A DNA stretch of 64,000 bases from a virus. Position numbers and translations under genes: made by a program. Shown in pieces: positions 3,765-28,847 of this stretch. Within the stretch, counting starts at the first letter, position 1, and each line of letters begins with the position of its first letter. The DNA is taken from IMG/VR virus record IMGVR_UViG_3300025138_000014, positions 32,001 through 96,000 of that record; one strand, 5' to 3'. The notes beneath the pieces were generated by a model, which was not told where the DNA came from, did not search any database, and saw only the letters and a list, made by a program, of their open reading frames with translations.

Positions 3765-4056
3765 CGAAAAAAATATTCTTTGTAAGGAAAGAGACTTGAC
3801 TGCAGAATTATATAATCTTTGGATTACTAAACTGCATGACTTTGAAGATATTCCAGAAAAATACGAACAGTATATGAAAATGATTGATAATCTTGAACCT
3901 TATGCAAATATGCTTAAAGAAGCCATAAGAGAAAAGAATAGTGAAATATGTAAACACTATGGAGTTAATTCTATTTCAGATACACCTCATTCAGTAGAAT
4001 GTATAAACAAATATGGTTATGATAGACCTAATGGAGCCGTACTGGAAAGAGGATGA
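3739..4056 (+). CDS. Hypothetical protein
   Basis: Packed operon ORF overlapping its neighbours; helical; no motif; start uncertain. Confidence 0.55.
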   Translation: MTLIQTIVDEKNILCKERDLTAELYNLWITKLHDFEDIPEKYEQYMKMIDNLEPYANMLKEAIREKNSEICKHYGVNSISDTPHSVECINKYGYDRPNGAVLERG

Positions 4057-4526
4057 TTGCTTTTGACACAGATCTGCTTGTAAATGGATATAAAGTTTTT
4101 GAGGATAAAAAAATACTCTTTACTTTAGGTAAAATACCTGATATAAAAGAATGGGAAGGAGATCAAGTAAAGTCTCCAAAAGGCTTTGATCTCCGACTAG
4201 CTCAAAATTATATTAACAATAAGTATGTTGCGCCAGTATTTGGTGGAGCAGTATTTGGTTATAGTAATATATGGAGTGGAACAGATAGCAATAGTAAAGA
4301 ATGGCACAATGATTTAATTGAAGGTTTTAATCTATTTTTTATGTATTACCTAAGTGATATAACAGAAGGCGGAGAGTTATGTTTCAGAGTTAATGGTAAA
4401 GAAACTGGTTCAATTCAGCCTAAGAAAGATATGCTGGTAATGGGATCTCAAGAAAGATACGTTGAGCATAAAGTGAACGACTGCAATCAGGAAAGAATAG
4501 TGTGTAACTTTGGATACAATATATAA
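4053..4526 (+). CDS. 2OG-Fe(II) oxygenase superfamily protein
   Basis: WHND, GGELCF, HKV...RIV; resembles 3216-3764. Confidence 0.75.
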   Translation: MIAFDTDLLVNGYKVFEDKKILFTLGKIPDIKEWEGDQVKSPKGFDLRLAQNYINNKYVAPVFGGAVFGYSNIWSGTDSNSKEWHNDLIEGFNLFFMYYLSDITEGGELCFRVNGKETGSIQPKKDMLVMGSQERYVEHKVNDCNQERIVCNFGYNI

Positions 4527-5190
4527 AATAGAAGAATATCTGCCTAAAATAGGTCCCTTTAGCATATACGCTCTATCTCATTTAATAACTCAAAGTGAAA
4601 AGTTTAATAATCACTTAGCTATGACTCAGCCAGATAATAAGTTTGAGTTAATGTATGCCAACTGGATAGCCACTGGTAATGAAAGTTTCATAGATTATTA
4701 TAAAGATATAGTTGCTCAAGCGTGCTTTGCTGAATTTCTTGAATGGTATGAGTACATAGCAAAGAACATACTACGAGATGATGTTCAAAGTGAACTTGGT
4801 ATTAAGTTTGACTATGATGCAATTAATTGGGAAAATGAAGTAAAAAAGTCCGAACTATTTGGATGGGCTTGGAGAACAACAGACTACAAACACTTTATGA
4901 ATAATTTGGATAAAGTCAGCAAAATCGGTGCTATGATGAACAACTTTTTTAATGATAGAAAACCGTTAAGCACTTTAGATGCAGATTACTTTGAATCAGA
5001 TCATGCTCAACTTGTACTCGACTCAATAGATAAAATTTTAATAAATAATGATAGACAAGAAATAATAGATCATTTAAATACAGAGAAAATTCTGTGTATG
5101 ATAGAAGTGTACGGTTGGGACAATCGGTTTAATAATATTCTATTGAAATGGATTTCAGACAATAGGAATAAAGTAAAACACTGGGCATGA
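4510..5190 (+). CDS. Hypothetical protein
   Basis: 226-aa ORF coupled to the downstream radical SAM gene (ATGA overlap). Confidence 0.6.
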   Translation: MDTIYKIEEYLPKIGPFSIYALSHLITQSEKFNNHLAMTQPDNKFELMYANWIATGNESFIDYYKDIVAQACFAEFLEWYEYIAKNILRDDVQSELGIKFDYDAINWENEVKKSELFGWAWRTTDYKHFMNNLDKVSKIGAMMNNFFNDRKPLSTLDADYFESDHAQLVLDSIDKILINNDRQEIIDHLNTEKILCMIEVYGWDNRFNNILLKWISDNRNKVKHWA

Positions 5191-6089
5191 TAATATCAAT
5201 AAACCCAACCTACTTTTGTAACTTTAGATGTGATTTCTGCTATCTATCTCCTAAACAATTGGGTGACCAGAAACAGATTTACCTTGAAAAACTAGATGAA
5301 TTATTAGCCCAAGTCCCAGATATAGAACACATTGACTTGTACGGCGGCGAAGTCGGCGCAATGAAAAAGTCCTATTTTTATGGCCTTAAAGAAGTCATTA
5401 GAAAATATTACTCTGGTACAATTAATATAAACACAAATTATTCTATGATGCATCCAGGCTTCTTTGACCCAGATGTTTATCTTTCTGTATCGTATGATTT
5501 TGAAGCAAGAGAAAAGTCTGAACTTGTCTTTAATAATATGATGATGGCTACAGCTCCAATGGCTGTTCTAGTCTTGGCTTCACCAACAGTATTAAAAAAA
5601 GATGTACTGGAGATGATAAGTTTACTAAATATGTGTAGTTCAGTCAGGTCTGTTGAAATTAAACCATATTCTACCAATCAAGCAAATGCTCATCCAGTAA
5701 CACATAAAGATTTTGAAGATCACGTTATTAAGTGGTTAGAGTATGAAGATGAAATGAAGTTCCAGTTTGTAAATGCAGATAGAATCATAGACTCATTGGA
5801 AGGCAACTATAATGCATTCTCTGACGATCATATTTATATTACACCAAATGGAAAATTCGGAGTATTAGAATTTGACAAAGAGGATAAAGAATACTTCCTA
5901 GAACTGGACAGTTGGGACGACTATATACTATGGACTCAAAAAGAAAAAACTGAAATGTCTCCTATCTGTACTTCTTGTAAGTATTTTGGTAAGTGCTTAA
6001 CAGAACATTATAGATATGTGAAAGACCTTACAAATAGTTGTAATGGATATAAAGGATTACTAGATTGGGCTGATTTAAATCTAAATTAG
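5187..6089 (+). CDS. Radical SAM protein with partial SPASM-like C-terminus
   Basis: NPTYFCNFRCDFCY, YGGE, C-terminal CTSCKYFGKC...C. Confidence 0.9.
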   Translation: MIISINPTYFCNFRCDFCYLSPKQLGDQKQIYLEKLDELLAQVPDIEHIDLYGGEVGAMKKSYFYGLKEVIRKYYSGTININTNYSMMHPGFFDPDVYLSVSYDFEAREKSELVFNNMMMATAPMAVLVLASPTVLKKDVLEMISLLNMCSSVRSVEIKPYSTNQANAHPVTHKDFEDHVIKWLEYEDEMKFQFVNADRIIDSLEGNYNAFSDDHIYITPNGKFGVLEFDKEDKEYFLELDSWDDYILWTQKEKTEMSPICTSCKYFGKCLTEHYRYVKDLTNSCNGYKGLLDWADLNLN

Positions 6090-16123: not shown

Positions 16124-16510
16124 ATGCCCGATTATAATACACTAGATGCTTCACTACAAGCAAAAGCGGGTGGGGCACTGAGAACTTTTGATAAAACTAT
16201 GACTTTTACTGTAACTGCATATGTATTACAATCAGTTACTACTACTCAAGCAGGCCCTACAAGCACACTTGGCGTTACTCAAAGATTTGAATTTACAGGT
16301 GCTGCCGATTCACTTTACGACGATTATCTTGACTCTGGTATTTACACTGGGGCACGTATATATTCTCAAGATGTTATTGACTCAATTTCTAATACAATAC
16401 AAAGAACTGTAGATCAGATAGAAAGTCGAATCACTGATAGATCAATCTCAGCTTTAATTTGCCACAATAGTTGTCATACTAGCTGCCATACTTCAAGAGG
16501 GCGCAGATAA
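16124..16510 (+). CDS. Candidate radical SAM substrate/precursor A with C-terminal (CHxS)3-RGRR motif
   Basis: Ends CHNSCHTSCHTSRGRR; paralog of the next ORF; coupled to the tail fibre gene and the radical SAM operon. Confidence 0.7.
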   Translation: MPDYNTLDASLQAKAGGALRTFDKTMTFTVTAYVLQSVTTTQAGPTSTLGVTQRFEFTGAADSLYDDYLDSGIYTGARIYSQDVIDSISNTIQRTVDQIESRITDRSISALICHNSCHTSCHTSRGRR

Positions 16511-16896
16511 TGGGAAATATGACGAGAGACAGTGTCGACTCTTATATCCAAACTTATTCTGGAGCGAAGTTAAGAACATTTGACAAAACTATTACTATAA
16601 CAACTACAGCATATCAGAATAACAATCCCACTGCTATGGGTGGAACAGGTACTAATACTACGACACATAGGTTTGAATATACAGGTGCTGCCGATTCACT
16701 ATTCGATAACTATATTGATGGAGGTATCGCAGTGGGCCAAAGAGTTTATGCGCAAGATATTGTAGACACTTTAGAGGATGCAGTACAAAGAACAGTTGAT
16801 TTGATTGAAAGTCGAATTGATAACAGATCTATCAGCGCAGCGTTATGTCACAGTAGTTGTCATACAAGCTGTCACACATCGAGAGGAAGACGCTAA
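16510..16896 (+). CDS. Candidate radical SAM substrate/precursor B with C-terminal (CHxS)3-RGRR motif
   Basis: Ends CHSSCHTSCHTSRGRR; same length (128 aa) as A; TAATG overlaps at both ends. Confidence 0.7.
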   Translation: MGNMTRDSVDSYIQTYSGAKLRTFDKTITITTTAYQNNNPTAMGGTGTNTTTHRFEYTGAADSLFDNYIDGGIAVGQRVYAQDIVDTLEDAVQRTVDLIESRIDNRSISAALCHSSCHTSCHTSRGRR

Positions 16897-18080
16897 TGGC
16901 GATGCAAGAATCATATTGTAAGCAAATGAGATATTCTGGACCAGAAAGTCTAGCACCATCAGATGCTACAAAGTTTGATGTTTTAATTCAAATGGAAGTA
17001 TTAGCTGGATGTGAGCAAGGATGTTTAGGTTGTTTTGTAGATAAGGCTATTGATCCAAAAAGTAATCAGCAAATTATTGATCGTGCTAAAGAACTGGCAG
17101 ATGGTGTAAAAAGAACTGGTCTTAATTTAAGAGAATTTGTTATAGGACCAACGGATCTGTTTTCTGCTAAAAACACTAAAGAAGTATTGGAGAATAAAGT
17201 TGTCCAAGAAATTATGCGAGAACATACAGGCGCTAGAATTGCATCCCCTGCAAAATTTGATAAAGCGCCTATGGAAAAAGTTAGAGAAATATTTGATATC
17301 CTAGATGATGAGAATAAATTCCGTCGTGATATGATTATTGAGTTTATTATGCCTATTGGCCGTATTAACGAGATGTTAGATGACGAGGACTATTATAAGT
17401 CTGTTATGGAAAAAGTTGACTTTTTTAAGAACGATACTCCTAAGATGATGGATTGGTCTTGGACTTTACAGGCTTCAAATGTAGTCGGTAAACAAATAGA
17501 CAAAGAAAAATACAACAGACTTATTAAAAGATCAGTTGAAGATTTTGGTACTATCATGGAAATGAACCCAGCGTTCTCCCGTGCACCAAATCAGATAATT
17601 CAAAGAAAAAATCTATTCGGTTGGAATAAATTCCTTAGTTCTGTTATTGATGAAGATAATGCTAAAGAGACAGTAATGTCCATGGCTAATTTATATTGTA
17701 ATTCAATAAACTTTATTGGTATTACTATTGTACCCGGAGAAAATGGACCGACTACACATCTTAATGTTATGCTTCACGAGCAAGCATTTTTCTTATCAAA
17801 TAAAAATCTTGATGTTACTGGACTTACATTTGAAGAAATTCTACAACGTAAACACGAGTTGGTTACAAAAGGTATAAATAAATCAAGTAAGGTAAAAGAT
17901 TGTCAAGACTGCCAGTTCGCTATGGCTTGTGCAAATAGATTAGTATTTGAGGCTCAAGAGTCAATGAATATTAATGGTTGTGTTTTACCAAAAGAAACAT
18001 TAGAGCATTATAATCCATTCGACTTTACATGGAATGACGATGCAGAAAAATATAATATGAAAAACGGAGCAAGAGCATGA
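16896..18080 (+). CDS. Divergent radical SAM protein (GPTD family, copy 1)
   Basis: Start at TAATG overlap; LAGCEQGCLGCFV, IGPTDLF, CQDCQFAMAC...C. Confidence 0.85.
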   Translation: MAMQESYCKQMRYSGPESLAPSDATKFDVLIQMEVLAGCEQGCLGCFVDKAIDPKSNQQIIDRAKELADGVKRTGLNLREFVIGPTDLFSAKNTKEVLENKVVQEIMREHTGARIASPAKFDKAPMEKVREIFDILDDENKFRRDMIIEFIMPIGRINEMLDDEDYYKSVMEKVDFFKNDTPKMMDWSWTLQASNVVGKQIDKEKYNRLIKRSVEDFGTIMEMNPAFSRAPNQIIQRKNLFGWNKFLSSVIDEDNAKETVMSMANLYCNSINFIGITIVPGENGPTTHLNVMLHEQAFFLSNKNLDVTGLTFEEILQRKHELVTKGINKSSKVKDCQDCQFAMACANRLVFEAQESMNINGCVLPKETLEHYNPFDFTWNDDAEKYNMKNGARA

Positions 18081-19183
18081 TTGGTCAAAATCTATACTAT
18101 CTTAACAGTTCAAAATATGTGAGTAATACGAGCAATCTTGGAACAGTAATCGGTGAATTAAACTCATACTACCACACCAAAACTCCTAGAAATATAGTTA
18201 TTGTTCATATGCAAAATGGTGCACAACATATAGCCGGAGCGCATGAACACATTGCCAATGAAATTAGAGCAGGTGCTGCAGATTTAATTAGCTATAAGAC
18301 TTGGGACGAAGTTGACAATATTGATTATATTCAGAATAGTGAAAAAGCAATTATTCTGTTTGCTACAGTTGAAGATATGATAACAGTCTTGGTAAGATAT
18401 ACAGCTGGGCTTATAAAAGCGTCAGGTTTCTATCCAGCAGATTCAGACTTCCAAGCCATAACCAGTGCATTTGTAAATAAGATATTTGATGTTGACTTAA
18501 TGTTTACATATATTAATAATCACGAAATTGTTGCTGATATTCCTGGTCACTTAACTTCTTTTTGGGCAGGCGATACTAGACCAGCAGGTAGAAACACTCC
18601 TTATGAAGTAATTTTCCAGAATGGTAAAAACTTCAGCTATGATCTTTTGTTTTTCTTAAATGATTATTATAGATGTAGCGGAGTCCAAGGTTTAATTAAA
18701 GAGAAATTTACAGTTCATCAATCTACTATGGCACAAGATGTTATGGAACACTTTACATCACGTCGGCACTATATGGCTTATATTTTATCAGTCATTGATT
18801 GGATGAATGCAAATGTGTCACGTAACTCTCAATATGCTACAGATAAGAAACCATGGATTGTTGATGCTTATATCACTAAAGCCAATTCTGGCAACTATAC
18901 AGCTGCTTTTTATAAGCTGGAAGAGTTATGGAACCTAGTCAAAGATGATACGGCATTTATTGCAGCACACCAAGACAAAGCTGATTCGGATGCTACTGGT
19001 TGGGAATATATGGATTTATATACAGAATTTAAAAATGTATTTCCCATTGTCAGAAAAGTTTTACAGAATGATTTTGATATGAATAATCTTACTATGGAAT
19101 TAAGGCTTATTAATACAGACGTTCAGTTTTTCTCAAAAAGACAAAACAGGATCCCATACTTAATTCACAAATACCCTTTATAG
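18077..19183 (+). CDS. Hypothetical protein in the radical SAM operon
   Basis: 368-aa ORF with ATGA overlap; no recognised motif. Confidence 0.7.
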   Translation: MIGQNLYYLNSSKYVSNTSNLGTVIGELNSYYHTKTPRNIVIVHMQNGAQHIAGAHEHIANEIRAGAADLISYKTWDEVDNIDYIQNSEKAIILFATVEDMITVLVRYTAGLIKASGFYPADSDFQAITSAFVNKIFDVDLMFTYINNHEIVADIPGHLTSFWAGDTRPAGRNTPYEVIFQNGKNFSYDLLFFLNDYYRCSGVQGLIKEKFTVHQSTMAQDVMEHFTSRRHYMAYILSVIDWMNANVSRNSQYATDKKPWIVDAYITKANSGNYTAAFYKLEELWNLVKDDTAFIAAHQDKADSDATGWEYMDLYTEFKNVFPIVRKVLQNDFDMNNLTMELRLINTDVQFFSKRQNRIPYLIHKYPL

Positions 19184-19197
19184 GATTATAATATATC

Positions 19198-19962
19198 ATG
19201 AATGAAAAAACAGACATTGAAGCTAAGTGCTATGTGCTACCATTAGCACCTCAAGACTTAGTGGGAATTTACAAGCATAAAGAAACTGTTGAAGATTTTA
19301 CTTTATGGGTAGATTATTTAATATCTAAAGAAAAGCTATCAGCAAAACACATAATTATATATTTGGCTAATACTAATTTTAGAGCATCATTTGCGCAAAT
19401 TGATGATGATCTTATTCGTGAGTATATTAAATCAGATTTCATGGTAGATTGCCCTTTACTTGCAAGGATAGTTGTTCTAATAGTTAAACATTATTATAGA
19501 CATGAACCAAATGAACAAGAGCGTGAATTGTATAGTATATTCTCACCTTCAAATATTAATATTTTTATCAGAGATAATAACGATCTAGTCAAAGAGTTAG
19601 TTCGTACTATAGCAAGTGCTATACCATTTGTATTAAATAAATTTTATGATGGTCTTGACGAAGAGGGTAAAGAAAAAGAAATTAATATAAGAGAATTTGT
19701 AAACGATATTACTATAGCAGATAAACCATCTAATTGCGGTCCGAATATTGCTAGATTGCTCACAGTAGGTTTTGATGCATTCTTACTTATTATTCAAAAA
19801 GAAGGCTTGTCTATGGAATACAATAAGCAAGTTTATAACGATGCTCCTAAATTTCTGGGAAAAGATTTATATTTTATTTTCTGTAACACTAAAATTACAG
19901 ATCATATTATGGATTTCTTTCCTGACGACTGGATAAAATCATATGATAGTACATCTGAATGA
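19198..19962 (+). CDS. Hypothetical protein in the radical SAM operon
   Basis: 254-aa ORF; AGGA upstream; overlaps the next gene. Confidence 0.7.
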   Translation: MNEKTDIEAKCYVLPLAPQDLVGIYKHKETVEDFTLWVDYLISKEKLSAKHIIIYLANTNFRASFAQIDDDLIREYIKSDFMVDCPLLARIVVLIVKHYYRHEPNEQERELYSIFSPSNINIFIRDNNDLVKELVRTIASAIPFVLNKFYDGLDEEGKEKEINIREFVNDITIADKPSNCGPNIARLLTVGFDAFLLIIQKEGLSMEYNKQVYNDAPKFLGKDLYFIFCNTKITDHIMDFFPDDWIKSYDSTSE

Positions 19963-20965
19963 TACATATGCTGGATACTGGAATTTCAAAAAAGATAAAT
20001 CTCCAGTAAATCAGGCATTTTTAAGAACAGAGATCAACCTTGACATTCTTCACGGCTGTAGCCAGATGTGTCCAGGCTGTTTTATTCCCAGAAAAAACTT
20101 AACTGATCCAAATGGAATGATAGAACTTCATAAGTTGCTTATCAATGGGCAATTTTATCCAGATGAAATCACTATTGGTCCAACTGATATATTTGATGCA
20201 GAAAATTTTGATGAAGTTATGAGACATCCTGGGCTCAAACTTCTTTATGAAATATCAGGTGTCGGATATACAACTACTTTACTACAACATGAAGAAGTTG
20301 TAAAGAGAAAACTTGCTATGATCTGGGATATTTATCAGCACATACATAGAATGCCAGATATGGATTTCAAAATTGTATTTGATATTGACAAATATCTTGA
20401 TGGAGAACTAGATGATTGGTATAAAAAATTAGAGTTATTCAATCTAGGTTCCGTTCAATTTAGGGTAAACTACCATAAAGGTGTGTTTGATAGAATTGGA
20501 TATAATGAGTTATGTAAAAGAGTTAAAGAGGATTTTAATACTCCGATTATTATTACTCCAAGTTTCTTAACTGATAGAAATGTAAGAGGAAAGGTTGATC
20601 AACATCTTGCTTCATTTAGACAAGAGTTATTAGATCAGAAAATAGATAGAGAATGGCTTCAGTATTATACATTCTTTGACGCCGAGTTTAATGGACTTGG
20701 TTGCCAGAACTATTCTTTTTATAATGGAAAGCTATATACAAATCCATTTTTATATGATAATATAATCCAGAGAACACCTAAGTTTGAAACAACTATGGAT
20801 GAAAATACCCTGTTTGATAATATAGATTATGCTCAACAGGTAGATGACTGTAATGGGTGTGAATATATGATGAGTTGTGCAGAGCGCAATATTCACTTAT
20901 ATATGGAGTCACGTAATTTGGAATCATGCGTTGCTCTTAAAGAGTATATGTATGCCCCTCATTAA
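19943..20965 (+). CDS. Divergent radical SAM protein (GPTD family, copy 2)
   Basis: LHGCSQMCPGCFI, IGPTDIF, CNGCEYMMSC...C. Confidence 0.85.
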   Translation: MIVHLNDTYAGYWNFKKDKSPVNQAFLRTEINLDILHGCSQMCPGCFIPRKNLTDPNGMIELHKLLINGQFYPDEITIGPTDIFDAENFDEVMRHPGLKLLYEISGVGYTTTLLQHEEVVKRKLAMIWDIYQHIHRMPDMDFKIVFDIDKYLDGELDDWYKKLELFNLGSVQFRVNYHKGVFDRIGYNELCKRVKEDFNTPIIITPSFLTDRNVRGKVDQHLASFRQELLDQKIDREWLQYYTFFDAEFNGLGCQNYSFYNGKLYTNPFLYDNIIQRTPKFETTMDENTLFDNIDYAQQVDDCNGCEYMMSCAERNIHLYMESRNLESCVALKEYMYAPH

Positions 20966-22115
20966 AAATAATCTATTCTATGAATTAACTACAGAGACAC
21001 AAACCAAACCAGTATCAGCCGTAAAACTTCAGCTTGATGTATTAGACGGATGCCATCATAAGTGTCCGGGTTGTTTTGTTCACAGACGTGGTAATTCTAG
21101 TAATAAACATCAGTTAAGTGATGCTAAAAAATTCATAAGAAGTATAACAGACCAGGGTATTCTAGTTGATGAAATGCTTATTGGTCCTACAGATTTTCTT
21201 GCTTCAGAAAATTTCTATGAAGTTATGCCAGATCTGTTAGATATAATTAATGAAAATTCTCCTATTCTTGCATTTGTTTCAACTCTTATTGATGGAGACT
21301 TGAAGCGATGGACTCAATATATTACAGATAATATTAATATCAATACTGAAATAGAAATTGGTATTGCTACAAATCCTGCAAAGTTTTATGAAGAAGGCTA
21401 TAGACAACTGATTCAAGATAAGTTAGATTATATAGATAAGAATTTGGAACACGAGGTAACTTATACTTTTGTTGTAAATATTAGAGATTATGGTATTGAC
21501 TATGAAAAATTACATAACCATTCTGTCGTTTGTTTTAAAACGGTTTTAGACTTTGTTCCGTCTGTTAGTAGGTCACATAAGAATTACCTCATATTAAAGA
21601 TTTTAGATAAATTTAACGTGTTTTTTAATGAGCTAAGTGCTTATAAAGAAAGCAAAATAAATAACATTATGGTAGACCATTCACACGGTGGTCTGAATTA
21701 TACTGTTTTAAACTACAAGACAGGCAAGTGGTATTTAAGTCCTTTTATGTATGAGAACATGGCTATCTATGATGATATGTTTCATATAGATAATTTCAAT
21801 GATGTTACTGCTATTGTGGAGAAACAGATACAAAGAGCAAAAGGAACTGAGTGCGAAGATTGCCCTCTATTCTTTAGTTGCTATAATAGAAAAATTATAT
21901 TACTCAGAGATTATCTTGGCGTTGATAGATGTATTGCACCTAAAGAAAACATGATGGCACATATACATAACTACAACGGTCCTGCTCAGACTATGTATGA
22001 CTGGGATGGTTATTCAGTTGAGAACGATAAAAACGGATATAGAAAAAAGTTTTTAGTGACTCAAGAGAATGACCCAGAATTAGAACGACTCAGAGAAATA
22101 TCCTATGTTAAATAA
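20952..22115 (+). CDS. Divergent radical SAM protein (GPTD family, copy 3)
   Basis: Likely start MPLIKNN; LDGCHHKCPGCFV, IGPTDFL, CEDCPLFFSC...C. Confidence 0.85.
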   Translation: MPLIKNNLFYELTTETQTKPVSAVKLQLDVLDGCHHKCPGCFVHRRGNSSNKHQLSDAKKFIRSITDQGILVDEMLIGPTDFLASENFYEVMPDLLDIINENSPILAFVSTLIDGDLKRWTQYITDNININTEIEIGIATNPAKFYEEGYRQLIQDKLDYIDKNLEHEVTYTFVVNIRDYGIDYEKLHNHSVVCFKTVLDFVPSVSRSHKNYLILKILDKFNVFFNELSAYKESKINNIMVDHSHGGLNYTVLNYKTGKWYLSPFMYENMAIYDDMFHIDNFNDVTAIVEKQIQRAKGTECEDCPLFFSCYNRKIILLRDYLGVDRCIAPKENMMAHIHNYNGPAQTMYDWDGYSVENDKNGYRKKFLVTQENDPELERLREISYVK

Positions 22116-23241
22116 CGATTGGGCAGACATTGTAAATAACGGCAAAATGTTAGAAGAATATTCTGCAATTAGCCAAATGAAACAATACAAGATTCAAGTA
22201 ACTCTTGAGCTGCTTGAAGGCTGTTCTTATCTTTGCCCGGGTTGTTTTGTAAAACGTAGGGGTAATTGGCATCCAAAATCAATAGCATTATTTCATAGTT
22301 TAGCATATGAACTTAAAGATAGAACTGATATTGTTCTTGATGATATTGTTATCGGACCTACAGATTTCTATGGCGCAGAAAACTTAGAAGAAATACTTGA
22401 TGATCCTAGATTGGCTGATGCTATTCTTATGATGCCTGAGGATAATAGAAACATACAACATAACTGTTCTATTTTAGGTTCTCTATCTGAAAAAGATATT
22501 GAGAGTAAAATTAAGAAAGTTGAAAATTCTAGGCTGGGAGCTGTAGTTAAATGTTGGGATGTGCAAATTGCACTAGATTTAAATAGGTTACTTAACGATG
22601 ATGATTATAGACAAGCACTTGAAAATAGAGTAAAGATGTTTGAAGATAGTTCACTAGAATTTGAAATATCAATGGCAACTAACATTGTAAATAATATTGA
22701 AAGTATATTATTTGAAGCCATAAATTACACTAGAGAAAAATATTCTACAGTTATAGAAATACTTCCATCTGTAGTTAGGTCATTAAGTGCTAATAGCAAA
22801 CATGCCGTGAAACTATTTAAGTGGAACTCCATGCTTGATACTTTTGCCAAAGAGCCGGATTTTAAAAATAAGTTTCATTTCCTACAAGGAGATATATCTC
22901 ATAAGACTTTTCAATATGCAGTTGTTAATATACATTTTGGAAAGTTTTATGCTTCACCATTTATTTATGAAAATGCTCAGATTTATAAAGAATCATTTGA
23001 AATTAAAATTAATGATTCTATCCATGAATCTATACTAGCACATAAAGATGCAATTGTAAACAAACAAATAGAAAGTAGTGCAAATAAAGAGTGTGGTTCT
23101 TGTAAATATTTAACCATATGTTCTCATAGAATGATTCCACAAGTAATGGACACATTTTTTAAAGACCGATATGAGTGCATATTAAATAAAGATGTAATAA
23201 GTATCTGGGATTATGAGGTGTATCGTGGGAATAGTTATTAA
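22105..23241 (+). CDS. Divergent radical SAM protein (GPTD family, copy 4)
   Basis: LEGCSYLCPGCFV, IGPTDFY, CGSCKYLTIC...C. Confidence 0.85.
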   Translation: MLNNDWADIVNNGKMLEEYSAISQMKQYKIQVTLELLEGCSYLCPGCFVKRRGNWHPKSIALFHSLAYELKDRTDIVLDDIVIGPTDFYGAENLEEILDDPRLADAILMMPEDNRNIQHNCSILGSLSEKDIESKIKKVENSRLGAVVKCWDVQIALDLNRLLNDDDYRQALENRVKMFEDSSLEFEISMATNIVNNIESILFEAINYTREKYSTVIEILPSVVRSLSANSKHAVKLFKWNSMLDTFAKEPDFKNKFHFLQGDISHKTFQYAVVNIHFGKFYASPFIYENAQIYKESFEIKINDSIHESILAHKDAIVNKQIESSANKECGSCKYLTICSHRMIPQVMDTFFKDRYECILNKDVISIWDYEVYRGNSY

Positions 23242-24241
23242 CAATAAAAGAGCTGCCCAAGCAGATGCAGACTTTGATGTAAGTTTAGGTCAAGGACATG
23301 AAATAAAAGTCCAGTTCAATTGTGAGATATTATCTGGCTGTGAGTTTAAATGTAAAGGATGTTTTGTTAATAAATTAGGCAACAATGTTGGGTCATTTGA
23401 TAGGTTAAACAATGCCATTGATCTGTTTAGCGCAAATGGATATAGAGTATCAACAATTAATATCGGACCCACAGATTTATTCGGTAATAATAATGTTATT
23501 GAGTTATTGAAAGATGAAACCTTTCGTGAATGTTTAAGCAAAGTTTCTACTATACAATTCGTCACGACCCTAATAAACATTTCGTCAGAAGTAATTGATT
23601 TACTTAACAGCATACCTAAAATAGATGGGTTTATGTATGATGCAAACATAGCTTTACAACCACCAGTAAATTGGGATATGATAGAGGAACGGCTAAAACT
23701 ACTCAACGGTTTTACCGATGATCTAAATTATTATATGGTTTATAATATGGGTAATGATGACGAGTACAATAATAAAGTATTAGAAATGTCTGATATTGTA
23801 GATGATAGATTTGATTCTATTCTTACATTAAATCCATCATTCTTTAGAGCGCCAAAAAGTAAAGTACAAACACATCTAATTGAGAAGTGGAAAAATTATG
23901 ACTTTTCACCTGACTTATATCCAAAGACAATTATTGATAAATCGCAAGGTGGAAGTCTTGAACTAAATTACACATACTGTAATGGTAGGTTTTTCTGGAC
24001 TCCATTTGTATATGATATTGCTATGATCGGAACTAAGGAGTTTGAAGTCAAAGATGAGAACGATATTGAATCTTGGACTGAAGCTAAATCATTTCAATTT
24101 ATGAAACAATTAACGTATTCTAGTGAAACGGAAAACTGTGGTTCTTGCGGTAACATGATGACTTGTATAGACAAAGGGGTTCTAAGTTATATGGAACATC
24201 ATTCAATTAAATCTTGTGTCTTTCCTGGAGTCTTTTCATAA
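23213..24241 (+). CDS. Divergent radical SAM protein (GPTD family, copy 5)
   Basis: LSGCEFKCKGCFV, IGPTDLF, CGSCGNMMTC...C; the start may be GTG at 23225. Confidence 0.85.
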   Translation: MRCIVGIVINNKRAAQADADFDVSLGQGHEIKVQFNCEILSGCEFKCKGCFVNKLGNNVGSFDRLNNAIDLFSANGYRVSTINIGPTDLFGNNNVIELLKDETFRECLSKVSTIQFVTTLINISSEVIDLLNSIPKIDGFMYDANIALQPPVNWDMIEERLKLLNGFTDDLNYYMVYNMGNDDEYNNKVLEMSDIVDDRFDSILTLNPSFFRAPKSKVQTHLIEKWKNYDFSPDLYPKTIIDKSQGGSLELNYTYCNGRFFWTPFVYDIAMIGTKEFEVKDENDIESWTEAKSFQFMKQLTYSSETENCGSCGNMMTCIDKGVLSYMEHHSIKSCVFPGVFS

Positions 24242-25323
24242 TCAAATCCTGTTATAAGATTTTGACCAGTTTTATCCATGTAATTAAACCACATTCTCAT
24301 AATACAATCTGGTAAATCTCTCTCACGATTTTTCCAGTCCCATTGTGTATAGCATCTAAATCCACACTTGTTGTACCACTTACATGATAAGCAACCATTT
24401 TCATCCATATAAGCCTGCATCATGCCAGTATTATCTTTACGCTCAAACTTTGTATTAAAGTCCCTTTGATCGTATCTATCCCATCTACAATTAGATGTAG
24501 AATTATCTGGAAATATGGTAACTTTATTCAGAGCCAAACAGTGCATGTGATTAGACTCATTATAGATTAGATCCTTAATAGGGTTAATATCAGGATAGTT
24601 GTGATATACAAACTTTAGAAACTCCAGATATTTACTATCGGACGGAATCATATAATCATATCCACGGTCTGGAATATAATCGTCAAAATAGAAGTTGTCA
24701 AATTTATCATACAGATAATGAAAATACTCATCATCATCTGCCATGAACTTTTCTATACTGAGAGTAGTTGCTACCATATTAATTGAAGTAATATAATCAG
24801 CAAAATATTCAATGTTCTTTGCGTAGGGACCTTTTGTTGGTCTCCCGTCAAAGTCATAAGAGCAAATAATAAAGCTAGGTATATCAATAGCATTTAAATC
24901 ATCTAATAACTTTTTTAGTCTTTCTCTTTTACTAAATTGAAAAGAAGTAACCCACACAATTTTTATTGTTTGATCATGCTCGTCATAAATCTTTTTAACA
25001 GCTACTAGGAAATCATAATAATATGGATAAAACTCTTCCGATATTCTATCTTGAAATAATTCTCCTCCAAGCATATTGATCTGAATAATATCAGCACGAC
25101 CTTTCATCTTTATAACGTGTTCTTCAACCAATTCAAGCTTTGAAAATATACCCTCACGAGATAGTCCAACTTCAGACTTTTTATCATGGTGGCAGAACGA
25201 GCAGTTGAGATGACAATTCTCAAATAGAGTCATCTCAATCTCTGCTATATCAGGCCGTTTAGCCTCAAGCAAAGTTCTTGTAAAATCATATTCTGGGTTC
25301 GACTGAACCTTAGAGTTGATCAA
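24199..25323 (-). CDS. Radical SAM protein with SPASM-like C-terminus (paralog of 570-1589)
   Basis: LFENCHLNCSFC, GGELFQD, CLSCKWYNKCGFRC...C. Confidence 0.9.
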   Translation of the reverse strand: MINSKVQSNPEYDFTRTLLEAKRPDIAEIEMTLFENCHLNCSFCHHDKKSEVGLSREGIFSKLELVEEHVIKMKGRADIIQINMLGGELFQDRISEEFYPYYYDFLVAVKKIYDEHDQTIKIVWVTSFQFSKRERLKKLLDDLNAIDIPSFIICSYDFDGRPTKGPYAKNIEYFADYITSINMVATTLSIEKFMADDDEYFHYLYDKFDNFYFDDYIPDRGYDYMIPSDSKYLEFLKFVYHNYPDINPIKDLIYNESNHMHCLALNKVTIFPDNSTSNCRWDRYDQRDFNTKFERKDNTGMMQAYMDENGCLSCKWYNKCGFRCYTQWDWKNRERDLPDCIMRMWFNYMDKTGQNLITGFDYEKTPGKTQDLIE

Positions 25324-25717
25324 ACATCATTTCCTCTTCATAGTATTTCCTTATATCTGGAACCATTCCTCTGCTTTCATCCCAATCTTCAAGTACAATA
25401 TCTAGGATAGCATGATAAACATCTGGATCGGTAGTATATCTTTTAAAGTATGGATCGTTATTAAAAAGTAAATCTACATCATCTAGTGCGGCAAAGAAGT
25501 CTTCGTTAAAATCTTCGGAGATCCATTTAGCATAACAGATAGCCACGGCATATGATTTTGCTGGATAAAGCCAAATATCCACTTTCTCATAAAAGTGCAT
25601 GATTGCATTATTAATAATTTCTTCATCAATAACAATATCAACTTTGTTTAGATCATCTTCATGTTCTGTTACCATATGGTGAAATGCTTTTTGTCTTACT
25701 TTCCATTCCTGCATCAC
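25310..25717 (-). CDS. Hypothetical protein between radical SAM genes
   Basis: 135 aa, acidic; overlaps both neighbours. Confidence 0.7.
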   Translation of the reverse strand: MMQEWKVRQKAFHHMVTEHEDDLNKVDIVIDEEIINNAIMHFYEKVDIWLYPAKSYAVAICYAKWISEDFNEDFFAALDDVDLLFNNDPYFKRYTTDPDVYHAILDIVLEDWDESRGMVPDIRKYYEEEMMFDQL

Positions 25718-26769
25718 GCAACTCCTTCTAAATACATTTGCGATTCATCAACATAAGGTGTAATAGCATTTTCACTCATACCATTCATCTTTAATATTTG
25801 AGGTGCTAGTCCTTTCATCTGTTTACAATGTGCTTCAACAGTCTTTTCTCTTTTCATGTCACGTACTGTCTTTTTACAACCATTACATATTTCAAACATA
25901 GGACAACTAAAGCAAGACATTTTCATAGACTGAATATTTGGATCATGCTGTAACGGAGTTTGCATTTTTCCATTCATCTCTTCCTCAAAGTTGATTGGAT
26001 AATCCATATCATCTGCAAAAGAGCCACATGAATAATAATCTCCACCTGGATTAAATGCTCTAATTCCTTCATCACATTTTCTATTTTGCGGACAAGTTGT
26101 AGCACTTCCACCCAGCCGTCTTACCAACTGCTTTGTATTATATTCCCATTCGGTAAGACCTTGGTTATACACGTCAACGTAAATGGCATACATCTTACTT
26201 AATCTGTAAGTACTGCCTTGAACTCCAGAAGCCATAGCATAATTTAATTTACATTCGACATTCATTTCTTTAGCCAGCTTCACATTATCAATAGCACGAT
26301 AATCACTCATATCAGTCATAACGGAAATAAAGTCTGCTCTTTCACCGCAATACTTCAACATAGCATCTTGGCATCTCCAAAAGTCCTCTACAGTAAATTC
26401 GGTAAAATCACCTTTTAATCTACCACCACCAAATTGGAAAGATGTAGCAATACCCATTCGTTCGTGATTAAATAGATCAACCCACTTTTGTGGCTTCATT
26501 AAGAATGGCCATAAGTTTGTAGTGAAACTGATACTGGCTTTATAGTCATGTTCATCTAAGTGATCAATTAGATCCCAATAATATTTGGGCTTGACCATAA
26601 GTGGATCGCCACCATTAATAATTAAAGTATTGGTTTCTGGGTATCTTTTAAGGAATCTGTAGATATAATCTAAATCTAGTAACCCGGCTTTATCTGGGTC
26701 AATAGCGGTAGATGAACAGAATGAGCATTTAAAGTTACACGCTTCTGTAGGTTTAATAATTAGATCCAT
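25714..26769 (-). CDS. Radical SAM/SPASM protein (anSME/peptide maturase-like)
   Basis: IIKPTEACNFKCSFC, GGDPL, C..NRKC...NPGGDYYSC...CFSCPMFEICNGC...C. Confidence 0.9.
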   Translation of the reverse strand: MDLIIKPTEACNFKCSFCSSTAIDPDKAGLLDLDYIYRFLKRYPETNTLIINGGDPLMVKPKYYWDLIDHLDEHDYKASISFTTNLWPFLMKPQKWVDLFNHERMGIATSFQFGGGRLKGDFTEFTVEDFWRCQDAMLKYCGERADFISVMTDMSDYRAIDNVKLAKEMNVECKLNYAMASGVQGSTYRLSKMYAIYVDVYNQGLTEWEYNTKQLVRRLGGSATTCPQNRKCDEGIRAFNPGGDYYSCGSFADDMDYPINFEEEMNGKMQTPLQHDPNIQSMKMSCFSCPMFEICNGCKKTVRDMKREKTVEAHCKQMKGLAPQILKMNGMSENAITPYVDESQMYLEGVA

Positions 26770-27791
26770 TGCTTTTCTTCCGCTAGAGTCATCATCAAGG
26801 TTTTAGGTGCAGGACAGACATCATCCATCCAATAGAGTTGGTGACAATCAGATTTACAATATAAGAAAACTGGGCACTTATAACATCTCTCATCTCTATC
26901 GTTTATTTCTTCACTTATTGTGCACATTCGTGCAGGATTTAATTTTACTACCTCTGCTGGAGTATTTATAGTATCGTAATGTTTTGTTGGTGCAGTATTT
27001 GGACAACCCGCTACTGTTCCATCAGCATTAATAGTAAAAATTTTCTGCTCACAGTCACGACAAAAAGTACCAATACTAAATTGCCCATGTGAAAATTTCT
27101 TATAAACTGAGTCTAAAAATCCATTAAAGACATTATGATCTTTAGTTGTTTTGTGCATCTTCATCCACCAAGCATCTAATTCTCTATTATGTGGAAAAAT
27201 ATCAGTATTAATTTTAGCATTACCATCGTGGGTTAATCTCTCATAACTAATTTCATCAATGCCTATTGATTCCATATAGTCCGCTATCCATAGAGGTTCT
27301 AGTTTTAGAATGTCCTTAGATACCGAAATAAAACATTTCATTCTGTGACCACGAGAAGCTAAAAACTTTACATTGTTTTCCCATAGTTCTCTTTGTTTTT
27401 CATTAGAAAATCTAATATTTGGATCCCAGCTGGTTCCAATACTTCCGCCATCAATACATTCTTCAAGGAATGATAATCTTGCTTCATTTAATTTAAAAAC
27501 TAGATTGCTAGTTATTCCATGGGTACAACGGTCTCCCCATTGATCTTTAGTTATCCGATGAAATTCACGTAAATGATCCATTGGTGCAAGAAGAGGTTCT
27601 CCACCGTGATATTCTAAATGAATTTGATTTGTTCCGTTATCTAATTGATTGACCCAGTTAGCAGTCTTTATATGGTCAAAATAAATCTTTCTACCATTCT
27701 TACCGCTAGTGAAGCAATGGAAACAATTAAGATTGCAGGTTTCCGTTGTCTTCACATACACGCAAGTAAATTTTTGTGTCACTAATGCCAT
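26760..27791 (-). CDS. Radical SAM/SPASM protein (peptide maturase-like)
   Basis: KTTETCNLNCFHC, YHGGEPLL, CRDC...INADGTVAGCP...CYKCPVFLYCKSDC...CP. Confidence 0.9.
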   Translation of the reverse strand: MALVTQKFTCVYVKTTETCNLNCFHCFTSGKNGRKIYFDHIKTANWVNQLDNGTNQIHLEYHGGEPLLAPMDHLREFHRITKDQWGDRCTHGITSNLVFKLNEARLSFLEECIDGGSIGTSWDPNIRFSNEKQRELWENNVKFLASRGHRMKCFISVSKDILKLEPLWIADYMESIGIDEISYERLTHDGNAKINTDIFPHNRELDAWWMKMHKTTKDHNVFNGFLDSVYKKFSHGQFSIGTFCRDCEQKIFTINADGTVAGCPNTAPTKHYDTINTPAEVVKLNPARMCTISEEINDRDERCYKCPVFLYCKSDCHQLYWMDDVCPAPKTLMMTLAEEKQWI

Positions 27792-28206
27792 AACTGAATA
27801 TCAATGCTTCCTGAGTGTTTAATGCACGATGTTTTGTGCCTTTTGGTATTTCTACTTGTTCACCTGGATTTAGTAACTTTGTAGAACCTTCAATTTCTAA
27901 TATTTTATTACCATCGCAGCAATATATTACTACATCTACTGGATCTGTATGTTCTTCAAAAGATGGACCATCAATAGGATTATAAAATATATGCATCGTG
28001 CCTTCATTATAATCAACAATCTTTTCATACATCTCAATTTTTAATGTATTCTTTTCTGCGATTAAAGCCGAAATTTTACCATAATATACCCAATAGTTAT
28101 CTTGTTCAACATACTGTATTCTGTGTTCACTATCTATAACCGAAACATTACAAACATTGAAGCACTGTTCGGAGAGAATAAACTCAAAGAACTGTTCAAA
28201 ATTCAT
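27727..28206 (-). CDS. Cupin/JmjC-like oxygenase
   Basis: SFEEHTDPVDV...G.K...LNPGE.V.IPKGTKHRA. Confidence 0.7.
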   Translation of the reverse strand: MNFEQFFEFILSEQCFNVCNVSVIDSEHRIQYVEQDNYWVYYGKISALIAEKNTLKIEMYEKIVDYNEGTMHIFYNPIDGPSFEEHTDPVDVVIYCCDGNKILEIEGSTKLLNPGEQVEIPKGTKHRALNTQEALIFSYGISDTKIYLRVCEDNGNLQS

Positions 28207-28237: not shown

Positions 28238-28245
28238 TATTTATA
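28238..28245 (-). promoter_or_regulatory. T4-type late promoter for the minus-strand cupin/radical SAM operon
   Basis: TATTTATA on + (TATAAATA on -), 32 bp before the 28206 start. Confidence 0.75.
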
Positions 28246-28262: not shown

Positions 28263-28847
28263 ATGATAAAGCAAGCATTTGCAACACCCATATCCATAGA
28301 AAAAATTACTGTGGATGATATTGTCGAAACCATCTTTTTAGAATATGATTTATCTAAGCCCCCTGATGATAAGTATAACATATTCGAAGGTGATTGTAAA
28401 CCCGCCGTTAAAGAATTAGAAAAAATAGCCTATGATAGATTTCGTAATTATGTTGACAAAGCATTTGATATTGATATAGACAAATATGAGTCGGCGATGA
28501 AAGCATGGATAACAGGTCATGGGGAACAATATTCTATGGCTATACATAATCATTCTGGTTCTTGGTTCTCTGCTGTATACTATGCACTTGCAGAAGAACA
28601 AGGTCGTGGAGGAGCAATTTCTTTTCATGATCCAAGAACTAATGCAAATCGTGGATATGATGCTAATTTTGCACCACATTTTGCAGCAGAAAAGTTACAA
28701 CCAGAAACTGGAGACCTTGTGATATTTCCATCATTTTTATATCATCATGTAGATCCATATTTCTCAAAATTTAGAATAGCAATTCCAATTGATTTGTATC
28801 TGGCAGATTGGCCAGATGGAAAAGATAATGAAAGAATTTTTGAATGA
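28263..28847 (+). CDS. Putative 2OG-Fe(II) oxygenase (TIGR02466-like)
   Basis: HNHSGSWFSAVYY, F.DPR, GDLVIFPSFLYHHV.P...RIAI. Confidence 0.8.
   Translation: MIKQAFATPISIEKITVDDIVETIFLEYDLSKPPDDKYNIFEGDCKPAVKELEKIAYDRFRNYVDKAFDIDIDKYESAMKAWITGHGEQYSMAIHNHSGSWFSAVYYALAEEQGRGGAISFHDPRTNANRGYDANFAPHFAAEKLQPETGDLVIFPSFLYHHVDPYFSKFRIAIPIDLYLADWPDGKDNERIFE

Follow-up and report, generated by a model that had tools for sequence, protein, structure and literature searches.

A divergent radical SAM protein family forms an optional arm of a phage cassette built around Cys/His-tailed proteins

In a 64,000-nucleotide stretch of the genome of a marine T4-like phage (IMG/VR record IMGVR_UViG_3300025138_000014, positions 32,001 to 96,000; hereafter the window), a pair of genes for small proteins with a Cys/His-rich C-terminal tail is followed by five paralogous radical SAM genes, whose family we call "GPTD-type", a name coined here. 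We found that this family is an optional, expandable arm of a gene cassette built around (CHxS)3-RGRR-tailed proteins. On balance, we think it probable that the GPTD copies are functional, non-redundant enzymes that form an optional tailoring arm acting on the Cys/His tail of a virion-associated protein. Motifs, orthogroups, purifying selection, synteny and the predicted fold were observed in our analysis; the virion presence of one tailed relative is taken from the literature.

All five genes lie on the plus strand, and each represents one orthogroup. Copy 1 (orthogroup 1; 16896..18080, 394 aa) carries CEQGCLGCF, IGPTD and CQDCx5C..C. Copy 2 (orthogroup 2; 19943..20965, 340 aa) was assigned by its motifs and its place in the tree, and copy 3 (orthogroup 3; 20952..22115) comprises 387 aa from an ATG within an ORF that opens at a GTG at 20877. 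Copy 4 (orthogroup 4; 22105..23241, 378 aa) gave the best match of any GPTD protein to the SPASM-domain model TIGR04085, with a weak E of 0.005 that is under threshold, and copy 5 (orthogroup 5; 23213..24241, 342 aa) was used for AF2 modeling. The interval 16896-24241 also holds two non-radical-SAM genes, at 18077-19183 and 19198-19962. Pairwise identity among the paralogs is 21-24%, and L-x-G-C-x3-C-x-G-C-F, I-G-P-T-D and C-x2-C-x5-C...C are invariant in all five. The PFxY(E/D) motif that the first-pass annotation had reported in four copies is indeed there; copy 1 lacks it and has GPTTHLN at that place.

The same annotation had drawn attention to the GCxxxCxGCF motif, the Gly before its third Cys and the terminal CxxCxxxxxC...C, which we recovered in all five copies and in nearly all relatives. 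In a census of 198 distinct full-length relatives, 193 kept all three motif sets, 197 had Gly before the third Cys, and 184 had GPTD proper. CX3CX2C, the ligands of the SAM-binding [4Fe-4S] cluster, was complete in each copy, in 137/137 aligned relatives and in 198/198 full-length ORFs. Across the 137-sequence alignment, no Cys reached 90% conservation apart from the three of CX3CX2C and the four near the C terminus. The motifs are thus family-wide and not there by chance.

The family is small: a profile search of 1.84 billion protein representatives returned 212 clusters at 50% identity. None of the curated Pfam or NCBIfam models reached threshold on the GPTD proteins. With the radical SAM model PF04055, the top copy scored 18.8 bits, below the gathering threshold of 29.5 bits, and only 13 of 137 relatives matched at E <= 0.001; membership in the radical SAM superfamily rests on motif and fold rather than on this model. 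None of the five proteins matched the HxsB/HxsC equivalog models TIGR03978/TIGR03977 at E <= 0.1, and there was no match to the anaerobic sulfatase maturase model TIGR03942 and no significant match to the ranthipeptide or CXXX-repeat NCBIfam models. All five did match PHROG 31457, which has no annotated function (E 3.5e-5 to 2.2e-10). These results support the first-pass view of a distinct subfamily. Judged from sequence, the GPTD proteins appear to be one distinct radical SAM family, PHROG 31457, that has not been characterized so far.

We then considered the predicted structure. The AF2 model of copy 5 (pLDDT 91.8, pTM 0.91) consists of alternating strands and helices and matched dozens of radical SAM structures with Z 8-14.6, so that a radical SAM/SPASM fold with a partial (beta/alpha)6 barrel is confidently predicted. 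The top matches were anSMEcpe (Z 14.6), ChlB (14.0), CteB (13.1), SuiB (12.8), SkfB (12.3) and PqqE (11.4), scores tied within about 1.5 at the top, so likeness of fold cannot tell anSME-like oxidation from cross-linking. The match to anSMEcpe spanned residues 31-342 of copy 5 (281 residues aligned, rmsd 4.0).

A complete SPASM domain uses seven Cys to ligate two auxiliary [4Fe-4S] clusters, and a Twitch domain holds auxiliary cluster I only, with ligand Cys that flank a beta-hairpin. In place of the seven-Cys SPASM motif (TIGR04085; CX9-15GX4C ... CX2CX5CX3C ... C), the GPTD proteins have four conserved C-terminal Cys: no conserved Cys was seen around the SPASM hairpin across the five copies and the 137-sequence alignment, and the fourth Cys of the SPASM CX3C occurred in 0/195 relatives. 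The C-terminal CX2CX5C..C aligned, with equal spacing, to the CX2CX5CX3C..C of a canonical SPASM paralog. By motif spacing and alignment, the four Cys are the likely ligands of auxiliary cluster II, and this pattern agrees with the earlier suggestion that auxiliary cluster I has been lost.

In radical SAM enzymes, the GGE motif after strand beta2 binds the methionine amino group of SAM. Motif inspection and profile alignment revealed no canonical GGE after beta2 in the GPTD family. When the family was aligned by hhalign to radical SAM family D of the cassette, IGPTD-LF-GNN was placed against IGHVD-LY-GGE, and model strand 78-88 of copy 5 agrees with this placement. GPTD is therefore the end of beta2, three residues ahead of the GGE-equivalent position, which is degenerate (x-A/G/N-E/N/K) and followed by a nearly invariant Asn. 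The first-pass reading of GPTD "in place of GGEP" was right in that IGPTD is present and GGE is degenerate, but GPTD adjoins the GGE site and does not replace it. Because GGE is degenerate and Gly takes the place of the aromatic residue ahead of the third Cys, we treat SAM binding by the GPTD enzymes as an assumption.

The candidate substrates are encoded immediately upstream. Tailed protein 1 (16124..16510, plus strand; PHROG 35144, function unassigned) and tailed protein 2 (16510..16896, plus strand) each have 128 aa and end in CHNSCHTSCHTSRGRR and CHSSCHTSCHTSRGRR, respectively. The stop codon of the second overlaps the start codon of GPTD copy 1 (TAATG), and from this stop codon on the five copies sit in one translationally coupled array. 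In 30 aligned relatives the C-terminal tail, (Cys-His-x-Ser/Asn)x3-x-R-G-R-R, is invariant, and its "x" positions and the protein body are variable; the cassette was defined here by a broader tail form, (CHxx)3-x-R-G/S-R-R, encoded no more than a few kb away and accompanied by families A-D. The AF2 model of tailed protein 2 shows a helix, a long beta-hairpin, a second helix and a low-confidence C-terminal tail, which suggests that the tail is flexible. In the phage Atu_ph07, the tailed protein gp170 was detected in purified virions, and the neighboring enzymes gp165-169 and gp171-172 were not (PMC6102473 Table S5). On the basis of this one relative, encoded in a cassette with no GPTD gene, we regard the tailed protein as virion-associated. 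The first-pass term "precursors" fits poorly: the tailed proteins are folded and 125-364 aa long, and are not leader-core peptides.

The five orthogroups each received 100% SH-aLRT support and are conserved across many phage contigs. Values of dN were 0.10-0.25 against saturated dS, indicative of purifying selection. The copies are inherited together as a set in fixed gene order; in reduced arrays, orthogroups 1 and 3 are most often retained, and retained together. The five copies are ancient, appear to be non-redundant, and all keep their cluster ligands. They do lie directly 3' of the CHxS-tailed genes, as the first-pass annotation had it, but the tandem expansion it proposed is not recent. 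Nor is its idea of site-specific action on the CHxS units supported in the form of one copy per unit: copy number per cassette ranges from 0 to 6 (RSL2 1, namely ORF071; DT01 2; Atu_ph07 0) while the tail stays at three units, and it tracks neither tail-unit number nor tailed-gene number.

The cassette core consists of radical SAM families A-D, cupin and 2OG-oxygenase-like proteins, and two accessory proteins. In the window, the accessory genes lie on the plus strand within the GPTD array. One (18077..19183, 368 aa) belongs to no known family, with no Pfam or PHROG match and a weak Atlas lead to PI-PLC-X; each of its 70 related loci is a cassette with GPTD genes. The other (19198..19962, 254 aa) belongs to the RSL2 ORF070 family. 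This copy has no PHROG match, and an upstream cluster-1 copy of the family (L008:1555-2229) matches PHROG 20767; iterated searches with the 254-aa protein and ORF070 converged on 153 matches in 149 loci, nearly universally beside a tailed gene. Downstream, on the minus strand, are radical SAM/SPASM family B (CHLNCSFC; 24199..25323; 36% identity to RSL2 ORF072, E 6e-69; PHROG 1802), a 135-aa cassette protein of unassigned function that recurs in 70 loci (25310..25717), family C (CNFKCTFC; 25714..26769), family A (26760..27791; RSL2 ORF067, E 1e-85; weak matches to RiPP maturases) and a cupin-like protein (27727..28206) whose iterated search gave 76 matches identical to those of RSL2 ORF066. Family C has a full SPASM Cys set, matches RSL2 ORF075 (E 1e-131) with 51-58% identity to jumbo-phage copies, and exceeds the Pfam Radical_SAM threshold. 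A 2OG-Fe(II) oxygenase-like protein follows on the plus strand (28263..28847; PHROG 81, E 2.9e-25; TIGR02466, E 2.9e-11). Also on the plus strand are a second family B copy (570..1589), in an upstream cluster around a third tailed protein just beyond the window edge, and family D (5187..6089; RSL2 ORF077, E 5e-81), which keeps GGE and has a four-Cys half-SPASM as in the GPTD family. We found the cassette in T4-like marine phages, in phiKZ-like RSL2 and DT01, and in contigs of Bdellovibrionota. A (CHxx)3-xRGRR protein was present at every GPTD-related locus with upstream context, and wherever context is available the GPTD family was not seen away from a tailed-protein gene.

Family D is also the closest GPTD relative detectable by profile (hhalign E 4e-6, probability 87%). 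Both have a four-Cys CX2CX5C...C end with no further conserved C-terminal Cys and an invariant Asp on beta2; however, family D has Phe before the third Cys, an invariant GGE and a single-copy place in the core, whereas GPTD genes come as an optional set of variable copy number. Among solved structures, the best whole-length match was the anaerobic sulfatase maturase anSMEcpe (PDB 4K36-4K39), which is of similar size, likewise lacks an N-terminal RiPP-recognition domain, and acts on Cys or Ser of a folded protein; the GPTD candidate substrates are also folded. Identity is 10-11%, though, and in anSME both auxiliary clusters and a canonical GGE are present. The last tail unit, C-H-x-S-R, bears only a loose resemblance to the anSME substrate motif, C/S-x-P/A-x-R, and has no Pro or Ala at position 3. 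The cluster II motif of anSME, which we take to be CX2CX5C...C, matches the four Cys kept in the GPTD family. SuiB, CteB, ChlB, SkfB and PqqE share the fold class (Z 11-14). SPASM RiPP maturases install radical cross-links or oxidations on ribosomal peptides and, like the GPTD genes, are clustered with their (candidate) substrates. They differ in using leader peptides and usually an RRE domain; the GPTD candidate substrates, by contrast, are folded, span 125-364 aa and carry the core at the C terminus, and no RRE is present. The GPTD enzymes keep 4/7 SPASM Cys, and Gly stands where an aromatic residue would precede the third Cys. In PapB-type ranthipeptide maturases (Cys-X3-Asp thioether rings) and the CXXX-repeat system (TIGR04114-04117), the substrate Cys are evenly spaced at short intervals, and one small ring is formed per unit by radical SAM/SPASM enzymes; acceptors there are Asp/Glu, and the cassette tail would offer His/Ser. 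Other cassette paralogs gave weak NCBIfam matches.

A precedent for radical SAM maturation of HxS repeats is the HXS antiphage system (HxsA/B/C/D; TIGR03976-03979), in which at least two radical SAM enzymes, together with a small partner, mature a tandem His-x-Ser protein (Li et al., Nat Commun 2026; PMC13128918). Like the cassette, it joins a repeat protein to several radical SAM enzymes, and other radical SAM proteins of the cassette match the HxsB/HxsC models weakly (E 1e-3 to 1e-6). The cassette units, however, are Cys-His-x-Ser at the extreme C terminus followed by RGRR, rather than His-x-Ser; they belong to a phage late/structural module rather than a bacterial defense island; and HxsA resides in the periplasm, whereas one tailed relative is a virion protein.

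Because the GPTD family travels only with CHxS-tailed proteins, it probably modifies the tail chemically. Our inference on substrate, chemistry and division of labor is as follows. Late in infection, each GPTD enzyme would cleave SAM at its CX3CX2C-bound [4Fe-4S] cluster, and the 5'-deoxyadenosyl radical would remove a hydrogen atom at a residue within or close to the flexible Cys/His tail that both 128-aa proteins carry. The outcome would be a cross-link (of the thioether or His/Cys-carbon type) or an oxidation, with site, residue or order of action varying among the five orthogroups. Once modified, the protein would be built into or onto the host-recognition fiber apparatus.

It is also conceivable, if rather unlikely, that the GPTD enzymes modify another host-recognition protein, such as the product of the large tail fiber gene directly upstream in the window or the tailed-protein body, and are linked to the tail indirectly through the shared cassette. 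Cassettes that look complete yet have no GPTD gene (Atu_ph07 and at least 10 metagenomic loci) encode an unchanged tail; whatever families A-D do to it thus does not depend on GPTD enzymes, whose substrate could be another. Moreover, in GPTD-rich cassettes the 368-aa accessory protein replaces the ORF069 type and the tailed protein has a different, small body with distinctive conserved motifs (QLRTFDKT, RFEY, RRTVDLIEGR), and fiber or giant surface-protein genes always adjoin the cassette. Against this, translation of copy 1 is coupled to that of the tailed gene, RSL2 and DT01 pair GPTD genes with a long-bodied tailed protein, so that no single body type follows the family, and no invariant motif shared by the fiber proteins matches the tail in conservation.

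A non-protein substrate (nucleotide, sugar or lipid), as for viperin, MoaA and BtrN, with the family a mere cassette passenger, strikes us as quite improbable. Viperin, MoaA and BlsE are among the structural matches (Z 10-11.5), but the best and longest are protein or peptide maturases, the family always lies by a tailed-protein gene where context is available, and Pfam and NCBIfam scans found no small-molecule pathway genes in the cassette. Slimmer still are the chances of a hetero-oligomer in which some paralogs are catalytic and the rest serve as scaffold or substrate clamp. Co-inheritance in fixed order and the joint retention of orthogroups 1 and 3 would suit such a complex; however, CX3CX2C and the four auxiliary Cys are kept in 5/5 copies and 193/198 relatives, contrary to the first-pass idea that some subunits are catalytically altered, all copies are under purifying selection, and a single one suffices in RSL2. 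To our knowledge, solved SPASM enzymes are monomers or homodimers.

A bolder extension of the tail-tailoring proposal, possible but doubtful, is that the GPTD enzymes are a new structural class (cluster II only, a non-canonical SAM pocket, the GPTD strand) whose five orthogroups each install a different tail modification. With families A-D, they would make a fiber end-piece with dense cross-links that might bind metal or anchor covalently, and this RiPP-like virion chemistry would be shared by phages and predatory bacteria for gripping prey.

Peptides (RiPPs), a few enzymes (sulfatases, quinohemoprotein amine dehydrogenase) and, since 2026, one antiphage effector are known to undergo radical SAM maturation; in the literature searched, we found no description of a virus-particle protein modified by a battery of radical SAM enzymes. 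The compact GPTD enzyme (about 340 aa), which appears to keep the second auxiliary cluster only, can test ideas on the role of each SPASM cluster, and the family, as the copy-number-variable part of the cassette, offers a natural way to ask what additional chemistry it brings and for what reason. Marine T4-like phages of abundant bacteria commonly carry the cassette, as do predatory Bdellovibrionota and jumbo phages that infect plant-associated bacteria; because it is always beside fiber or giant surface proteins, it may bear on how these predators recognize or hold their prey.

The interval 16896-24241 is occupied by seven ORFs that abut or overlap one another. Five of these are paralogs with a pairwise identity of 21-24% (16896-18080, 19943-20965, 20952-22115, 22105-23241 and 23213-24241). 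L-x-GCxxxCxGCF, IGPTD and CxxCx5C...C are among the columns that never vary between them, and PFxY(E/D) is present in four of the five. The remaining two, 18077-19183 and 19198-19962, contain none of GCxxxCxGCF, IGPTD, CxxCx5C...C or PFxY(E/D). The first paralog begins at an ATG that overlaps the TAA stop codon of the gene before it (TAATG), and the GPTD-type copies in the whole virus genome are only the five of this array. The surrounding window comes from an IMG/VR virus record of 151 kb and carries T4-type portal, major head, sheath, terminase and neck genes at 30-43 kb and tail-fibre genes at 6.7-16.1 kb. Marine metagenomes, among them those of Tara, are rich in close relatives of the studied genes; no GenBank phage matched window 14-26 kb by megablast. 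Sigma-70-like and terminator-like sites in the window occurred at shuffle level, so that their counts are uninformative, and the T4 late-promoter word TATAAATA was not enriched as a count (14 in the window vs 11 expected). Many copies of TATAAATA lie directly 5' of structural genes (6113, 30777, 35231, 37577 and 43831), and another at 28238 (-) precedes a minus-strand enzyme block.

We then compared the five copies with curated and structural databases. None of the Pfam or NCBIfam models reached its threshold on any copy; the best curated-model score was 18.8 bits for Radical_SAM (cut-off 29.5), and the sub-threshold matches included NrdG-type activases and Fer4_12. All five copies matched PHROG 31457, a family of unknown function. 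A five-copy profile run against 1.84 billion representative proteins retrieved only 212 clusters at E <= 0.001, of which 182 also passed E <= 1e-10; the GPTD family is small and sharply bounded. Only 13 of 137 members matched Pfam Radical_SAM at E <= 0.001. Conservation of 90% or more in the 137-sequence alignment was confined to the three CX3CX2C Cys, the Gly preceding the last of them, P-T-D, an Asn six residues after P-T-D, one Arg and the four C-terminal Cys. Across 198 distinct full-length GPTD ORFs from all fetched loci, 193 kept all three motif sets, Gly preceded the third Cys in 197, Phe followed it in 175 and GPTD was spelled exactly in 184. Our literature search found no paper characterising any member of the family, and jumbo-phage genome papers just list entries as "radical SAM domain proteins".

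A profile of 137 relatives found no structural homolog among all PDB sequences from sequence alone, its sole match being a weak one to the GDGT-MAS cluster-binding loop (E 0.008). AlphaFold2, supplied with the 137-sequence alignment, modelled the 342-aa copy with high confidence (pLDDT 91.8, pTM 0.91), and the neighbours of this model by Foldseek and VIA-align were radical SAM/SPASM enzymes with protein or peptide substrates. The match to anSMEcpe (Z 14.6) aligned 281 residues across model residues 31-342 and was followed by ChlB (Z 14.0), CteB (13.1), SuiB (12.8), SkfB (12.3) and PqqE (11.4), with MoaA and viperins next (Z 10-11.5). The top Z-scores are nearly tied; the fold therefore tells the class of the enzyme, not its reaction. 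The model of this copy contained no N-terminal RRE-like domain.

In an alignment with a canonical SPASM paralog from the window, the four C-terminal Cys of the family fall on its CX2CX5C(X3C)...C segment. In SPASM enzymes, the X3 Cys belongs to cluster I. This residue is replaced in the GPTD family, with Cys at the fourth-Cys position of CX2CX5CX3C in 0 of 195 ORFs, and the retained set would thus correspond to auxiliary cluster II, as expected from the half-SPASM that the first-pass annotation had proposed. The array belongs to a cassette in which radical SAM families A-D, a cupin, 2OG oxygenases and accessory proteins surround a small tailed protein, and the C-terminus of family D (window 5187-6089 and the alignment of family D) has the same four-Cys CX2CX5C...C with the other SPASM Cys absent, so a half-SPASM is not unique to the GPTD family within the cassette. 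Unlike the GPTD family, family D keeps a canonical GGE and the Phe before the third Cys. It is the nearest detectable relative of that family: profile comparison gave 87% probability (E 4e-6) and aligned IGPTD-LF-GNN with IGHVD-LY-GGE. In the model, strand beta2 comprises residues 78-88 and the next loop residues 89-94, which together with the family D alignment places GPTD at the end of beta2. The Asp of GPTD matches an Asp that is also invariant in family D. The GGE-equivalent triplet lies three residues after GPTD, is degenerate in the five copies (SAK, DAE, ASE, GAE and GNN) and is directly followed by a conserved Asn; the earlier suggestion that GPTD stands in place of GGEP must be revised in this sense. 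An hhalign comparison with family C put GPTD on beta3 instead, and was set aside for its 33% probability and its conflict with both the model secondary structure and the better family D alignment.

Two 128-aa proteins directly upstream of the array (16124..16510 and 16510..16896) end in CH(N/S)SCHTSCHTSRGRR at the stop codon. A third tailed protein, of 195 aa and ending in CHSSCHSSCHGSRGRR, is encoded 1.3 kb ahead of the window start and has enzymes of its own. The same tail terminates ORF068 of the phiKZ-like phage RSL2, a protein of the phiKZ-like phage DT01 and gp170 of Agrobacterium phage Atu_ph07 (...RSRR in gp170). From the family assignment of all ORFs in about 170 fetched loci, the canonical order was cupin, A, tailed protein, ORF070-type accessory, ORF069-type accessory, B, (B12 enzyme), C, D, (GPTD copies), 135-aa protein and 2OG-oxygenase-like protein. 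The pelagimyophage order was two tailed proteins, one GPTD gene, the 368-aa accessory (18077-19183), the 254-aa accessory of the RSL2 ORF070 family (19198-19962) and four GPTD genes, with families B, C and A, the 135-aa protein and the cupin on the opposite strand. BLASTP detected no similarity between the 368-aa accessory and RSL2 ORF069, and iterated searches gave non-overlapping sets, so the two are treated here as different families. ESM Atlas gave a weak lead for the 368-aa accessory (PI-PLC-X-like features, 0.91) and none for the 254-aa accessory.

Judged by similarity, the cassette enzymes of the window are clear orthologs of those of RSL2 (E 1e-85 for family A, 6e-69 and 1e-45 for the two window copies of family B, 1e-131 for family C and 5e-81 for family D). 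Family C (25714-26769, -) shares 51-58% identity between the marine T4-like phage and jumbo phages of Ralstonia, Burkholderia, Pseudomonas, Agrobacterium and Sinorhizobium, which are soil phages; this family is unusually conserved, all other cassette parts being far more diverged. We also observed a second, more canonical cassette copy just upstream of window position 1 (G000:C1:29209-32238 of the whole virus record, locus L008) and at window 15-6089, in the order family A, 195-aa tailed protein, ORF070-type and ORF069-type accessories, family B (570-1589), B12-binding radical SAM (1555-3252) and family D (5187-6089). Fibre genes separate the two cassette halves.

A tailed protein was found at every GPTD locus with enough upstream sequence. 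However, the converse fails: Atu_ph07 and at least 10 metagenomic cassettes reach family D and beyond without a GPTD gene, and the GPTD family is an optional part of the cassette. Its copy number took every value from 0 to 6 (1 in RSL2, 2 in DT01 and in some marine contigs, 5 in most marine contigs), and the tail had three units at all these loci. Elsewhere, rare four-unit tails (L094:864-1433, L100:156-764 and L093:3907-4266; example CHSSCHSSCHGSCHGSRGRR) demonstrate that the unit number can vary.

The model of the 128-aa tailed protein consists of a helix, a long beta-hairpin and a helix, with a low-confidence tail (pLDDT 54-61), and a fold search of this model against the PDB returned nothing at E <= 0.001. 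One of the 128-aa tailed proteins and the 195-aa one gave no match by tblastn, probably owing to low-complexity masking and divergent bodies. Virion mass spectrometry of Atu_ph07 listed gp170 (31.89 kDa, 8 unique peptides, 35% coverage), and gp165-169 and gp171-172 are missing from the same list (PMC6102473, Supplementary Table S5). The listed mass matches the 296-aa tailed protein (L229:7983-8873) of this GPTD-free cassette, and the missing products are, by gene identity in Atu_ph07, the cassette enzymes and accessory proteins adjoining gp170. The tailed protein is therefore a component of the particle, and the enzymes are not. gp170 reached its highest abundance in the uppermost SDS-PAGE band (gel band 1), a position much higher than its mass would predict (PMC6102473); this anomalous migration fits, but does not prove, covalent or SDS-resistant assembly or attachment.

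The fibre gene directly upstream of the tailed genes always ends similarly (...IG(I/V)AL(E/S)DG...VEVK(I/V)), in window 14027-16123 and at loci L032, L040, L047, L049 and L051, over fibre lengths of 258 to 2486 aa. This shared C-terminus may be a docking or chaperone module. The fibre at 14027-16123 carries Gly-X-Lys collagen-like repeats and is adjoined by a 645-aa protein (28844-30781). This protein combines GT25, a PLOD-type glycosyltransferase domain (PF25342, E 1.5e-44) and a 2OG-Fe(II) oxygenase domain with a weak match, and so looks like a collagen lysine modification enzyme of the animal type.

The nearest system described so far is HXS, in which the radical SAM proteins HxsB and HxsC, with HxsD, mature HxsA, on which a +8 Da change is located at an SHRSS unit (PMC13128918). 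The GPTD proteins are not members of the HxsB or HxsC families. Synteny, the fold and the likeness of the tail to a substrate incline us towards the tail as the GPTD substrate, a reading that we hold to be somewhat probable and in which we infer the substrate, the bond and the division of labour among the five copies. The main rival is that the GPTD enzymes modify another substrate, either the fibre or the body of the small tailed proteins. The occurrence of the same tail in cassettes without GPTD genes keeps this rival alive, and we consider it rather unlikely.

To define the reach of the tail, we searched for it as a DNA pattern, (CH..)3..RGRR, with an estimated chance expectation of <1 match in the genome collection. 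The pattern was present in more than 118 viral contigs and in 39 stretches of cellular assemblies, ~34 of which were true C-terminal tails, mostly in Bdellovibrionota/Bacteriovoracaceae MAGs. Several cellular loci had full cassettes with strong GPTD matches (E 1e-76 to 1e-100), and chromosomal cassettes of predatory Bdellovibrionota were found at L230:9866-18645 and L231 (Bacteriovoracaceae MAG, 2.84-Mb contig), and also at L074-L109. On the 2.84-Mb contig, the cassette is flanked by genes for a lysyl-tRNA synthetase, an MFS transporter, a periplasmic binding protein, a transposase-like protein and a DinG-like helicase, and the tailed gene is followed by that of a 2355-aa surface-type protein with Big_2/RCC1 repeats. 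Phage families in Pfam had no matches among the ten largest ORFs sampled in 40 kb of this contig, and in the 40 kb checked the cassette does not look like a prophage. This cassette among housekeeping genes rules out a phage-only family; the GPTD family is therefore not restricted to phages.

Lastly, we built a quick maximum-likelihood tree (IQ-TREE, SH-aLRT support only) of 57 GPTD proteins from 14 loci. The tree resolved five groups with 100% support each, every group holding one copy per pelagimyophage-like contig. The stems of these orthogroups measured 1.3-2.0 substitutions per site, which rules out recent tandem duplicates. Two-copy phages keep orthogroups 1 and 3, and three-copy phages 1, 2 and 3; the RSL2 and DT01 copies group loosely with orthogroup 3 on long branches. 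Ortholog pairs had a dN of 0.10-0.25 with saturated dS. Both Cys sets are retained in all five copies and all motifs are kept, which argues against pseudo-enzymes among them; the catalytically altered subunits envisaged in the first-pass annotation are not supported, as none of the copies looks inactive. Overall, the ancient orthogroups, low dN and retained Cys show that the array is no recent burst, and the five GPTD copies would represent an old and maintained division of labour.
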